From contig CAVTES010000002.1 of the NCBI GenBank assembly GCA_963733885.1, positions 43,896 to 107,895 on the forward strand: DNA of 64,000 nt. Reading direction: 5' to 3'. The notes beneath the pieces were generated by a model that was not told the origin of the DNA, ran no database searches, and saw only the letters and a program-made list of their open reading frames with translations. This DNA is from an uncultured Thermoleophilaceae bacterium. GTDB taxonomy: Bacteria > Actinomycetota > Thermoleophilia > Solirubrobacterales > Thermoleophilaceae. Positions 59,766 through 63,962 of this stretch are shown here, piece after piece. Within the stretch, counting starts at the first letter, position 1, and each line of letters starts with the position of its first letter. The translations under genes and the position numbers were made by a program.

Positions 59766-62700
59766 GTGGCCGCCCTGCGGATCTCCTGGCTTCCGCCGGC
59801 TGACAGCAGCTCCCCGAACGCCCACGCGAAGCCCGGTGCATGGAGCTCTCTACCGCCCCTCAGTCGAACGGCTGGCCCTATCCAGGCGACCGCCCAGTCC
59901 ATCCCTTTCGTCCGTCGTCTGGCGATCCGCCGGCCGCCGAGCATCTCGCTTGCACCGCTTCGTCACGAGCTGAGCCTTCGGGCGCCGCACGGGCTCGTCA
60001 GCGGGATTGCGCGGGTGGTCGCCCGCTCGCAAGTCGAGCCCGAGCTCGAGTTCGCCCGGAAGCCAGTTCTGGATGGCGGGCCGGACGCGCCCGACGCCCT
60101 TCCCGTCGGCGAAGCGGCGGCCACCAACGTATCCACGTCTTCTTCGTCCGGCCAGGTGAGCGTTCCGAGCCCGACGCCGCGCGTCCTGCGAACTGCGCAG
60201 CCACGCGCGGACGGTGGACCGAGGCAGCTCACACGGCTTGAGCTGCCGCCGGGCGTCCTCGCCCGGGAGCCGACGAAACCGTCGCCGACCGCCGAGGCGT
60301 CGGCGAACGAGGTGGCGGATCCCGTGGCGCCGCCCATGCCTTCCCCGGGCGCACCTGCCTCGGCCGCCGCACCCGTCGGCCGCTCGGCTCCCGATGTCCC
60401 CCGCCGCCGCTTGCTCCACCGTGTCGGCCTCGGCGCTCCGCTCGTGTCTCCCCGTCCTGGCAATCCGCCTGCCGAGGAGCCGGAGCGCGTGGCTCCGGCC
60501 GAAAAGCCATCGGTAGCGACGGACCCGCCCACGCCGAACTCCGTGGCCGCCCAACGGACCGAGCAAAAGATCGAGCCGGCCGCTTCGCCCTCTCGCGTAA
60601 GAGCAAGGGCGGCGAGGGAAAGACAGCTTGAGCAGGCGGGAGAACGGACAGGTCTCGCGGGCGTCGCGCCCGCGCCCCGCGGGACTGCTCGGGTGCCGCT
60701 CGCAACGGACCTTTCGACAAGTGACCACCCCCTCGCGGCCGACCGTTCGACGGGCGGGCAACCAACCCGGCCGACAGAGCCCGTGACATTCGGGCCGACA
60801 GATCCTGCGGTCCCTTCCCACGGCGGCTCAGAAGAGAGTGGGCAAGTTTCGCCCCGTTCGGCGCGCCGTGAGAGCAAGCCGGGTCGCTCCAGTCCAGCGC
60901 AGCGGCAGCCGGGAGCGGGCGTTGGTCGGGGAGACGTTCCTATCGTGTCTGGTCGAACCCCGCTCGTGGAGCCGGTCGCTGGGGGGCAGCTAGCCGCCGG
61001 ACCGGGCGCGAAGCAGGCCGCCCGACCCCGGCCGCGACGGCGGGCGCCGCCGCGGCTCCAAGCCGGGGCGGGGAGGGGGACCCTTTGCCAGGCCGGTCGG
61101 GCGCACCCAGAGCGGGGCGGCCAGCGCGCCCGGAGGCGCCCCCGTCACGACCTCCAGGGGAGGCCGAGCGCGCCGCTTTGTCCGCGCCCGTGGAGGCGGC
61201 GCGGTCGGCCGCGCCGGCTCCGCAGACGACGTCCGGCGCTGCCGCGTCGCGCCCGAAACGACGCGACCAACCAGCGCCGCGACGCGCGGAGACCGAAGGG
61301 ACGTCCGGGTCATCGCAGCCGATCTCGCCCGGATCGCCCCTTGAGCCACCCCCCGCGCGGCAGCCGCAAGCGGGCGTTGGTCGGGAAGATGTTCCTCTGG
61401 TGTCTGGTCGGGCCCCGCTCGTGGAGCCGGTCGCTGGGGGGCAGGTAGCCGCCGGACCAGGCGCGAAGCGGGCCGCCCGGGCGCCGGGCGCGGCGGCAGG
61501 CGCGGCGCCCCCGTCGGCGGGCGATGGATCCGTGCCCGCGGCGCGACCGGCGCCCGCGCGCGTCGATCGCGACGACGCGCCGGCGACCAGACATGTGGGA
61601 GGCCCCTCGCCGCTTCGGTCGCCGGCCCCAGCCGCCAAGGCGGTCGCCGCCGCGGCTCCAAGCCGGGCCGAGGAGGGGGACCCTGCGCCAACCCGGTCGG
61701 CCGCACCGGCACGGCAGACGACGTCCGGCGCCGGCTCGTCGCGCCCGTCACGACGTGACCAACCAGCGCCGCGCGGCGCGGAGACCGAGGGGACGAGCGG
61801 GTCCTCGCAGCCGATCTCGCCCGGGTCGCCCCCTGAGCCAGATCCCGGGCGGCAGCCGCAAGCGGGCGTTGGTCGGGGAAACGTTCCGCTGGTGTCTGGT
61901 CGGGCCCCGCTCGTGGGGCCGGTCGCTAGGGGGCTGGCCGGACCGATCGCCAAGCACGCCGCCCCGGCGGCAGGCGCGACGCCCCCCTCGGCGGGCGATG
62001 GATCCGTGCCAGCGGCGCGGCCGGGGCTCGCCCGCGTCGATCGCGACGACGCGCCGGCGACCAGACATGTGGGAGGCCCCTCGCCGCTTCGGTCGCCGGC
62101 CCCAGCCGCCAAGGCGGTCGCCGCCGCGGCTCCAAGCCGGGCCGAGGAACGGGACAGGGCGCCAAGCCAGTCGGCCGCGCCGGCACCGCAGACGACGTCC
62201 GGCGCTGCCACGTCGCGCCCGCCACGACGCGACCAAGCAGCGCCGCGCGGCGCGGAGACCGCGCCCGGCACGGGCCAGAACGCGACCCCGCCCATCCCCC
62301 CCGCCGCCGCCCGCCATGTCGCCGGGCAGTCCGCCCCCGCGACGGCGGCCGACGCCCCCGCCGTCGTCCCGCAGCGCGCAGCTCGGCCTGCGACCGAAGG
62401 GACGACCGGGTCCTCGCAGCCGATCTCGCCCGGGTCGTCCCTTGAGCCCCCCGCCGAGCGGCAGCCGCAAGCGGGCGTTGGTCGGGGAGACGTTCCTACT
62501 GGTGTCTGGTCGGGCCCCGCTCGTGGAGCGGGTCGCTGGGGGGCAGCTAGCCGCCGGACCGATCGCGAAGCGGGCCGCCCCGGCGCCGGGCGCGGCGGCA
62601 GGCGCAACGCCCCCGTCGGCGGGCGATGGATCCGTGCCTGCGGCGCGACGAGAGCCCGCCCGCGTCGATCGCGACGACGCGCCGGCGACCCGACCTCCAC

Positions 62701-63962
62701 GGGCAGCCAAGCGGGCCGTCTTGCCCGCACCCGACGCGGGCCAGAACGCGACCGCGCCGATCCCCGCCGCCGCCGCCCGCCAGGTCGCCGCGCAGCCCGC
62801 CCCCGCGACGACGGCCAAAGCCCCCGCCGTCGTCCCGCAGCGCGCAGCTCGGCCTGCGACCGAAGGGACGACCGGGTCCTCGCAGCCGATCTCGCCCGGG
62901 TCGCCCCCTGAGCCACCCCCCGAGCGGCAGCCGGAAGCGGGCGTTGGTCGGGGAGACGTTCCGCTGGTGTCTGGTCGGGCCCCGCTCGTGGAGCCGGTCG
63001 CTGGGGGGCTGGCCGGACCGATCGCCAAGCAGGCCGCCCCGGCGGCAGGCGCGGCGGCCCCGTCGGCGGGCGACGGATCCGGGCCCCCGGACGCGCCCCC
63101 GTCACGTCCTCCACGAGAGGCCGAGCGGGCCGCTTTCTCCGCGCCCGTGGAGGCGGCGCGGTCGGCCGCACCGGCGCCGCAGACGAGGTCCGGCCCTGCC
63201 GCATCGCGCCCGCCAGGACGTGACCAAGCGCCGCCGCGCGGCGCGGAGACCGCGCCCAGCACGGGCCAGAACGCGACCGCGCCCATCCCCGCCGCCGCGC
63301 GCCAGGTCGCCGCGCAGTCGGTCCCCGCGACGGCGGCCGCTGGGCTCGGCGACCCGGTGTCGCTCGCTGAGAGGTCCATCGCGGCGTCCCGACCCCTGAG
63401 CGGCGCTCGGCGCCTCGGCTCGCCGACGCTGCGGGCCCCGTCGCCCCGACGTCCGGACTCGCCCGCGGACGAACCGCGGCAGCCGCGGCATGGGCGGCCG
63501 GAGCTCCAAGCCTCGGGGGGTGGGCGGCGCGAGATGCCGGGCGCAGCTGCTGCGCCGGCGGGGCGGACGCGGCTCGTCCCGCAGCCTCACGCATCCCCCG
63601 CAGCCCGCGCGCGTTCTGCCGGGACCGCGGACAACCCGAACTCGGTGAACCGCTCGCGGTCGTCGACTCCCGACGACTCCGGCTCGGTCACACCCGAGCC
63701 CGCTGCAGCCACCGCGATCCCGAAGCGCGCAATTGCGACGATGCCGGCGCCGTCGTCCCCGCCTACCCCACCGTCGGCGGCGCCTCGCGCTGCGGTCGTG
63801 CAGCGCGCCACATCCGAACCCCGTCTCGGTGCCTCAGAGAGAACGACCGAATACGAGTTCGACCAGCTCGCGGACCGGCTGTATGGGCGGATCAGCGCGC
63901 GTCTGCGCGGCGAACTGCGGATCGACCGCGAGCGCCTGGGGCTCGCCGCTGACCTGCGATGA
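59766..63962 (+). pseudogene. Pro/Ala-rich tandem-repeat protein in the tape-measure position of the CIS operon; frame broken twice as sequenced
   Basis: The sensible reading is frame of 59766 up to ~61033 (..VGRGDVPIVSGRTPLVEPVAGGQLAAGPGAKQAA). It then moves to the frame of track ORF 61085..62911, until an extra nucleotide near 62498 (GTTCCTaCTGGTG). It then returns to the frame of ORF 61524..63962. The gene ends in the globular EYEFDQLADRLYGRISARLRGELRIDRERLGLAADLR. The off-frame segments are Arg-rich junk. If intact it would be ~1398 aa. As written, the first frame stops at 61448. Confidence 0.6.
60890..63340 (+). repeat. Five imperfect tandem coding repeats (periods about 456, 492, 609 and 466 nt)
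   Basis: The core GGGCGTTGGTCGGGGAGACGTTCC..GGTCGGGCCCCGCTCGTGGAGCCGGTCGCTGGGGG recurs at 60916, 61372, 61864, 62473 and 62939. Stretches over 110 nt are identical between copies 2 and 3 (for example CGCGTCGATCGCGACGACGCGCCGGCGACCAGACATGTGGGAGGCCCCTCGCCGCTTCGG...). Confidence 0.9.

Follow-up and report, generated by a model that had tools for sequence, protein, structure and literature searches.

A repeat-rich gene at the tape-measure position of a Thermoleophilaceae contractile injection system cluster is interrupted by two cancelling frame changes

Introduction

In extracellular contractile injection systems, Afp14/Pvc14 serves as the tape measure (Rybakova et al. 2015, as cited in PMC10066040). 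Clusters of the Streptomyces coelicolor/Streptomyces lividans type reportedly lack a typical tape-measure gene (PMC10066040, PMC12237407, PMC10286715), and Casu et al. specify that a typical Afp14-like gene is lacking in Streptomyces clusters (PMC10066040). S. coelicolor particles have a uniform length of 268 nm and 60 tube layers, with no assigned ruler (PMC12237407). Here, we analysed a 64,000-nucleotide (nt) stretch of contig CAVTES010000002.1 (GenBank assembly GCA_963733885.1) from an uncultured Thermoleophilaceae bacterium, hereafter the window. Its last 12 kb hold the start of a contractile injection system cluster, and our subject is the gene at 59766-63962, which lies in the tape-measure position of that cluster and changes reading frame twice. 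Judged from its sequence, this is a single gene of a conserved, undescribed family of Streptomyces-type clusters. On balance we suspect that its two frame changes arose in the assembly.

Results

The gene is read in frame 0, frame 2 and frame 0 again

In the open reading frame (ORF) listing of the window, three long ORFs overlap on the forward strand of this region (Table 1). The protein-like reading stays in frame 0 to ~61022, continues in frame 2 to 62497 and then runs in frame 0 to the stop at 63962. In a three-frame translation, the repeated peptides that track the frame, which include QPQAGVGRGDVPLVSGRAPLVEPVAGG, SSQPISPGS, RVDRDDAPATRHVGG and AAAAPSR, change from frame 0 to frame 2 at 61022-61026 and are back in frame 0 at 62498 (GTT CCT a CTG GTG). 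An independent statistic, the R/C/W/H content of each frame, switches at ~61026 and ~62466; applied to the intact relatives L001 and L058 (introduced below), it gave one main frame with brief excursions only. A plot of third-position GC gave no frame, all three frames lying at 0.7-0.9 in this Ala/Pro/Gly/Arg-rich region. The first-pass annotation, made from the letters and an ORF list, had proposed two compensating frame changes, and the ORFs, the translation and the R/C/W/H statistic all bear this out. It had also described the middle segment as coding-like in the shifted frame only, which holds for 61022-62497 in frame 2. Its exit from the starting frame stands too, with a small correction of position: it had given 61027-61045, and the junction falls a few bases before that, at 61022-61025.

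As written, translation from 59766 ends at the single TAG found when frame 0 was scanned from 59763 to 63960, in agreement with the predicted termination at 61448. The product has 560 amino acids (aa), of which 419 are authentic and the last 141 off-frame. Frame 2 has no stop from 60872 to 62909, and the repaired product, 1398 aa long, is read from a protein-like frame that is stop-free through all 1398 codons. The 560-aa ORF, including its 141-residue off-frame tail, is present verbatim in a public protein collection (P0004; NCBI, ENA), indicating that public annotation has already propagated the split gene.

The first-pass annotation had attributed the first shift to a deletion in repeat unit 1 whose length is not a multiple of three. 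We aligned unit 1 to four full sister units, two from the window and two from L001. One block is missing from unit 1 at 61022-61025, of 145 nt, or of 133 nt against the shorter variant. This block is always 3n+1 in length, and the alignments contain no separate 1-nt gap, arguing that the first shift is the junction of an out-of-frame internal deletion. The second shift is the 1-nt insertion at 62498 that had been anticipated: sister copies read CCTCTGGTG or CCGCTGGTG at this site and the orthologous copy in L001 reads CCGTTGGTG. The 15 nt preceding the extra base match window unit 1 rather than the L001 orthologous copy, which points to sequence having passed from one copy to another, whether in the organism or through cross-mapped reads. 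Relative to L001, the frame effects of the two lesions cancel (125 + 1 = 126 nt), and the N- and C-terminal parts share a frame. However, the frame-0 stop at 61446 is reached with or without the extra base at 62498, and thus, as written, the second lesion rescues nothing.

Relatives encode the same protein in one uninterrupted ORF

A protein search identified P0001, a protein of 1424 aa that is 89% identical to the repaired 1398-aa protein. On L001, the ENA metagenome contig that carries it, its gene occupies the same position and is a single ORF of 1424 codons without interruption. L001 is ~95% identical to the window, with DNA identities of 94-98% across the segments: 96.5-96.7% in segment 1 up to 60921, 94.4% in segment 2, which is protein-like in frame 2 only and colinear with the single L001 ORF, and 98.3% without gaps over 63083-64000 in segment 3. 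The gene order of L001 is DUF6760, the P0001 ORF and a gp19-like tube gene, followed by CIS_tube, Phage_base_V, PAAR, gp25 and baseplate genes.

Scanning genomes for the sheath protein yielded 80 further loci (best sheath identity 68%) from Chloroflexota, Dormibacterota, Acidimicrobiia and many Actinomycetes, including Streptomyces. Across loci the order sheath, tube, 154-aa gene, DUF6760, long gene, second tube gene is kept. A single ORF extends from the DUF6760 stop to the C-terminal motif in 55 of the 61 loci with the whole interval, and the encoded proteins, Ala/Pro/Gly-rich like that of the window, range from 558 to 1425 aa (median 865). The motif ELRxDRERxG stands at the gene end in 60 of the 61.

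The window gene shares these features. The DUF6760 gene precedes it and the second gp19-like tube gene follows it, and its first segment carries the family's N-terminal motifs W..LPP[IL].R, L.H....P.GLV.G and R..GLGAPL as GAWSSLPPLSR, PLRHELSLRAPHGLVSGI and HRVGLGAPLV (compared with L058, L024, L004 and L019). Its last segment has the C-terminal motif [DE]EL...L....L+.EL.xDRERxG within the last ~45 residues and ends ...EFDQLADRLYGRISARLRGELRIDRERLGLAADLR. The presence of the family's two ends in the window's first and last segments argues for one gene, as had been proposed at the outset. The window copy departs from the one-ORF structure of the family in needing two frame changes. Other searches added little: scans with the N-terminal alignment found no relative in genome contig or metagenome contig collections, an exact 23-mer of the repeat core had no match in metagenome contigs, and protein searches, which are hampered by low complexity, returned P0001-P0004 only.

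These comparisons bear on two further explanations. The first, that the region holds two or three separate genes, with an N-terminal protein and a separately initiated C-terminal one, we regard as very improbable. Gene callers do split the region, the 560-aa ORF is in the public record, and the corresponding region of a second relative, L002, is likewise called as a 916-aa gene plus a 159-aa gene. However, the window ORFs overlap by hundreds of bases, the overlaps are Arg-rich off-frame readings of the same repeats, and both the orthologue in L001 and the 55 relatives, a comparison that the first-pass annotation had recommended, are single ORFs.

The second explanation is programmed recoding, in which a ribosomal -1 shift near 61022 and a +1 shift at 62498 would yield the full-length protein, an option that the first-pass annotation had left standing. 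The cancelling of the two shifts would suit such a mechanism, and two frame-0 heptamers of the form X XXY YYZ do lie upstream of the stop (C CCC CCG at 61349 and G GGG GGC at 61436). Shifting there, however, would leave more than 100 codons off-frame. We rejected both heptamers as shift sites; as plain Pro-Pro and Gly-Gly codons they return in most repeat units, the G-run heptamer in four of the five. At the frame changes themselves there is no slippery sequence: an X XXY YYZ heptamer is missing from 61022-61026, and CCT-A-CTG is not among the known +1 sites. Moreover, both sites are missing from the 95%-identical L001, a plain ORF, and 55 of 61 relatives need no shift. Recoding is effectively excluded by these comparisons.

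The tandem array changes length between closely related strains

The first-pass annotation had described the whole 4.2 kb as a tandem-repeat array. We found the array to be confined to ~60891-63338; within the gene it is flanked by unique sequence, 1.1 kb at the start and 0.62 kb at the end. Its count of five repeats and ~1400 aa for an intact product proved right, with the core occurring five times. Units start at approximately 60891, 61296, 61788, 62397 and 62863 and are 405-609 nt (135-203 aa) long. The cores are spaced by 455, 492, 609 and 466 nt, that is 2, 0, 0 and 1 modulo 3, as the two frame switches require. Long sub-repeats are 89-93% identical across 244-297 nt, far above chance. 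Tandem Repeats Finder did not detect the array, owing to its period of ~470-610 nt with indels, and a separate repeat search recovered it.

Module order is colinear between the window and L001, save for 125 nt more in unit 1 and 192 nt fewer in unit 5. The alignment of the two genes contains four length differences and no others: +125 (60922-61046), -12 (near 61957), +1 (62498) and -192 (after 63085). Without the 125-nt stretch, the frame-0 head runs on in frame into the frame-2 middle, as it does in L001. From its sequence L001 looks like the result of a precise deletion between the two GCGGGCG copies that bound the stretch. The stretch is only 84-88% identical to its paralogues, indicating old sequence rather than a recent duplication.

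The five-unit array was not seen in L002 or other related loci. The longest family members belong to the window and L001 lineage (1398 and 1424 aa, compared to a median of 865), their extra length being due to the array; ~1400 aa is the top of the family range and only ~8% above the longest Streptomyces members (1293 aa). Among 55 family proteins (L003-L082), the tripeptide [VILM]Q[RHK], as in PVQR and AVQR, occurs on average 9.3 times per protein, compared to 0.47 in shuffled sequences. The window and L001 lineage has only one, the array having replaced that region, and [VIL]QR occurs three times in the window DUF4157 protein (54673-56760).

Frameshifted copies come from metagenome-derived assemblies

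We lean towards the explanation that the frame lesions are consensus or assembly errors and that the organism encodes one intact ORF. In the assembly, the 3n+1 deletion junction at 61022-61025 and the extra base at 62498 interrupt the gene, in a region whose GC-rich, repetitive and structurally polymorphic sequence could give rise to a faulty consensus. The assembly behind the window is probably a long-read metagenome assembly, as suggested by the 209,990-nt length of the public contig that carries the 560-aa ORF, and a mixed pile-up of reads over an array with 125-, 12- and 192-nt strain indels could produce such a consensus.

The distribution of frameshifts is consistent with this idea. In twelve other cluster genes, surveyed over 82 loci and ~640 kb, the globally noisy L030 was the one locus with frameshift-type splits. 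Frameshifted copies of the tape-measure-position gene are those of the window, of L002 (a JGI metagenome contig) and of L030, L040 and L052, the last three belonging to the six Nanopore-only MFD metagenome-assembled genomes (MAGs) with a complete interval. The MFD MAGs were assembled with Flye and given one round of Medaka polishing (PMC12313526). By contrast, there is no frameshifted copy among ~35 isolate and ~19 short-read MAG loci, as classed by their record titles. L030 aside, this is therefore the sole frameshifted cluster gene, and its frameshifts are found in metagenome-derived assemblies only, three of them Nanopore-only. Unless the reads have been consulted, an apparent pseudogene here should not be interpreted as biology.

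The frameshifts of L002 (4724-4800), L052 (~14190) and L040 (13240-15160) affect this gene alone, the neighbouring cluster genes being intact; L040 has many, L002 and L052 one each. At these sites in L040 and L052, and at the corresponding site in the isolate L081, tblastn without composition correction returned noise only and blastn found no sufficiently close relative. L081 (Streptomyces sp. NPDC020298) was considered as a true frameshift and rejected, as it has a run of N at 14663-14753, a scaffold gap or masked stretch. The gene seems hard to assemble even in isolates. The window relatives L001 and L083 are both ENA assemblies with Flye-style contig names. In L083 (1-3843 and 7412-20759), whose accession number is close to that of L001, the same cluster is riddled with indels (88 gap openings in 3.8 kb against the window), and transposase genes lie immediately upstream.

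Several observations weigh against an error. We found no other frameshift in ~28 kb of window coding sequence; each of twenty unrelated genes has a Pfam match within a single ORF, nearly always over the full domain, and the other cluster genes match L001 without frameshifts in their bodies. All seven single-base indels relative to L001 outside the gene fall in intergenic sequence or in non-conserved C-terminal tails, a pattern of real, selection-filtered differences rather than of random error. Neither lesion lies in a homopolymer of at least 5 nt, though the gene has 27 of these, and the first is a 145-nt structural difference rather than a simple miscall.

The alternative is a genuine null allele, in which the gene was inactivated by slipped-strand loss of an out-of-frame segment from unit 1 and, after that, by gain of 1 nt in unit 4. 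We hold this to be less probable than not by a clear step, while giving it real weight. Only the 560-aa product would then be made, the injection system would be recently dead or length-deregulated, and the cancelling of the shifts would be a coincidence, of about 1 in 2 for a second single-base indel. A null allele would fit an assembly that is clean elsewhere in the window, lesions away from long homopolymers and a first lesion that forms one 3n+1 block against four sister units. It would also fit an array that gains and loses segments between strains, with a 125-nt difference bounded by a 7-nt direct repeat.

Moreover, the amino-acid sequence is barely constrained gene-wide, so that a recent loss would leave no further trace. 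Differences from L001 are spread nearly uniformly over the codon positions of the gene (9/7/12, 12/14/11 and 5/5/6), compared to 7/1/34 in the sheath gene. Together with the comparison of synonymous and non-synonymous differences, this indicates that the whole gene is near neutral, not only its out-of-frame middle. The remaining cluster genes of the window are intact, and the sheath differs from that of L001 by 34 synonymous and 8 non-synonymous changes. This integrity of the neighbours speaks against a null allele, as do the lack of a frameshifted copy in the ~54 isolate and short-read MAG loci, the concentration of two independent lesions in one gene with none elsewhere, and the lack of any benefit from the second lesion. 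Collectively, these data somewhat favour an artefact over a genuine null allele. The frame anomaly as such matters little; a consensus error would mean that public annotation has propagated a truncated 560-aa protein, and a real lesion would be a strain-level knockout.

A candidate ruler at the tape-measure position

The repaired protein is Ala/Pro/Gly/Arg-rich (17% Pro, 10% Gly) and is predicted to be disordered apart from its last 40 residues. In a single-sequence AlphaFold2 model of the last 207 aa, residues 167-206 formed a helix with pLDDT 84-91, and the rest scored ~50. The first-pass annotation had expected a conserved globular C-terminus; conservation was confirmed by the motif in 60 of 61 loci, and the model contains one confident 40-residue helix in place of a globular domain. 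No homology to described tape measures was detected when window ORFs were compared with Pfam, or P0001 and three family members with NCBIfam, PHROGs and PDB sequences; these comparisons gave no match to any other described family either. Nor does the Pro/Gly-rich protein resemble a coiled-coil or alpha-helical rod, the confident helix being confined to the last 40 of the 207 modelled residues. The unusually long or length-variable tail that the first-pass annotation had tentatively derived from the repeat expansion is, in view of these results and of the modest excess over the longest Streptomyces members, an overstated prediction.

It is gene order that suggests a tape-measure role. The gene follows the 154-aa gene, which has a weak chaperone-like match, and, by the gene order of L001, precedes the baseplate hub genes. 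By analogy with this order (sheath, tube, chaperone-like, DUF6760, gene, tube initiator, baseplate), the protein would probably reside in the tube lumen during assembly, with its C-terminal helix anchored at the baseplate end.

As a speculative extension, one that we think unlikely to prove right, the family could be the missing length ruler of Streptomyces-type injection systems, in the form of a disordered Pro/Ala-rich chain with a C-terminal helix anchor. If this were true, the gains and losses of 12-192-nt blocks in the array between 95%-identical strains would make tail length rapidly evolvable, and out-of-frame slips like those of the window could turn particle assembly off. The family occupies the place of the tape-measure gene in contractile phages, with conserved ends and a freely varying middle (558-1425 aa), and it goes unnamed in the Streptomyces papers cited here, which state that no typical tape-measure gene is present. 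It is thus a concrete candidate for the length determinant behind the uniform particles of the Streptomyces type.

We give nearly even chances to a different function, whatever the answer to the frame question: the protein may be a lumen cargo, a plug or an assembly scaffold, with length set elsewhere, for example by the coiled-coil Sle1/Sco4254 class. The lack of similarity to tape-measure families in Pfam, NCBIfam, PHROGs and PDB, and the Pro/Gly-rich composition with disorder predicted outside the last 40 residues, are in keeping with this possibility. Furthermore, a 440-aa coiled coil remotely similar to phage tape measures is reported for Sle1, whose gene lies upstream of that for the sheath (PMC13277306), and the tube lumen of S. 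coelicolor looks mostly empty after deletion of three effectors (PMC10066040). On the other hand, the gene order copies that of contractile phages (chaperone-like gene, this gene, tube initiator, baseplate), S. coelicolor particles are uniform in length with no ruler identified (PMC12237407), and conserved termini around a centre of variable length are the tape-measure pattern.

The closest described counterpart is the unnamed gene of Streptomyces-type clusters, by gene numbering probably Sco4249, with Sco4250 probably corresponding to DUF6760. The mass-spectrometry table of Casu et al. skips Sco4249 and Sco4250 (PMC10066040). The window gene and the Streptomyces gene share synteny, the N-terminal GAW..LPP and R..GLGAPL motifs, the C-terminal ELRxDRERxG helix and an Ala/Pro/Gly-rich composition. 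The window and L001 proteins differ in being the longest, in carrying the five-unit array and in having nearly lost [VILM]Q[RHK]; in addition, the window copy is interrupted.

Like phage tape-measure genes that are preceded by tail assembly chaperone genes (lambda gpG/gpGT-gpH, P2 gpE/E'-gpT), the window gene follows sheath, tube and chaperone-like genes and precedes baseplate-proximal genes, and like them it is the largest of its module and varies in length through internal duplications. Unlike phage tape measures, its product is Pro-rich, predicted to be disordered rather than coiled-coil, and without sequence similarity to them. Afp14-type genes have a different place in the cluster and encode helical proteins; the window protein is likewise a candidate lumen-resident length determinant of a phage-tail-like particle. 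Finally, Tme and Sle1 (PMC11126660, PMC13277306) resemble the window protein in being large, partly disordered, encoded in actinobacterial clusters and proposed to lie in the tube lumen. Tme has DUF4157, transmembrane helices and a nuclease domain and Sle1 a coiled coil encoded upstream of the sheath, features that the window gene lacks; DUF4157 is found in the window on a separate protein, unlike in Tme.

Neighbouring genes and further observations

The features of the gene and its cluster are collected in Table 1. GC content of the window is 66-78% in 2-kb windows.

Table 1 Features of the tape-measure-position gene and its cluster, in window coordinates
Feature	Coordinates	Strand	Remarks
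Pvc16_N-type cap gene			Named via Pfam match on L001 orthologue
AAA ATPase	52548-54689		Named via Pfam match on L001 orthologue
DUF4157/eCIS_core protein	54673-56760		
Sheath	57191-58720		
gp19-like tube gene	58733-59182		
154-aa gene	59143-59607	+	Weak match to PHROG 508 'tail assembly chaperone', E=1.3e-3
52-aa DUF6760 gene	59604-59762	+	Overlaps stop of preceding gene (GTGA), -1 frame
ORF, frame 0	59766-61448	+	560 aa
ORF, frame 2	61085-62911	+	608 aa
ORF, frame 0	61524-63962	+	812 aa
Segment 1, frame 0	59766-61022	+	Unique N-terminal region (to ~60890) and head of repeat unit 1
Five-unit tandem array	60891-63338 (approximate)	+	2.45 kb; units built from shared modules
125-nt stretch not in L001	60922-61046	+	Bounded by direct repeat GCGGGCG (60915-60921, 61040-61046)
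First frame change (frame 0 to 2)	61022-61025	+	Junction of internal deletion in unit 1
Segment 2, frame 2	61022-62497	+	492 codons; rest of unit 1, units 2-3, head of unit 4
Only frame-0 stop, TAG	61446-61448	+	Ends translation from 59766
Second frame change (frame 2 to 0)	62498	+	One extra base, CCT-A-CTG
Segment 3, frame 0	62499-63962	+	Rest of unit 4, unit 5, unique C-terminal region, stop
Conserved C-terminal helix (TEYEFDQLADRLYGRISARLRGELRIDRERLGLAADL)	63837-63956	+	Predicted by AlphaFold2; ELRxDRERxG motif
Start of second tube gene (MEASGDMGT...)	63975-64000	+	AGGAGG before start; cut by window end

Every related locus has a copy of the 154-aa gene, with identities of 56-75% (91% for L001 and L002), and this gene has no match in Pfam or NCBIfam. 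DUF6760 was recognized as PF20546 on the L001 and L002 orthologues and by a tblastn match in every locus examined. The second tube gene matches the L001 gene at 14286-14735 (PF06841).

The junction of the 154-aa and DUF6760 genes (window 59589-59610) is nearly nucleotide-invariant (CCTGGGGGAATCGTGAC) in most of 81 loci, despite sheath identity of only ~60%, and DUF6760 lies in the -1 frame throughout (L001-L082). At this junction the window, L001 and L003 read G GGG GGG, a formal -1 slippery heptamer. The junction may simply be a ribosome-binding site with an overlapping start. Alternatively, by analogy with gpG/gpGT, it may be a chaperone frameshift just upstream of the tape-measure position.

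Further upstream, the Bestrophin-like gene region (46510-48070) is inverted relative to L001 (window 46510-51799 against L001 550-2274) and ~3.7 kb (48070-51799) have no counterpart in the L001 locus, indicating that the upstream border of the cluster was rearranged between the two strains. In the blastn comparison, window 55219-57049 has no alignment to L001 (5692-7282), a gap that takes in the C-terminal two-thirds of the DUF4157/eCIS_core protein and the spacer leading up to the sheath gene. The proteins have 695 aa in the window and 636 aa in L001, and the unaligned end looks, from this comparison, like a swapped effector-type C-terminal domain.

The sole tRNA of the window, tRNA-Phe (GAA) at 20427-20499 on the forward strand, lies ~31 kb from the cluster start, unlike the S. 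lividans cluster, which is reported to be adjacent to tRNA-Thr (PMC13277306). A c-di-AMP riboswitch (ydaO/yuaA; Rfam RF00379, 83 bits) at 9127-9272 on the reverse strand is directly 5' of the minus-strand ORF at 8364-9152.

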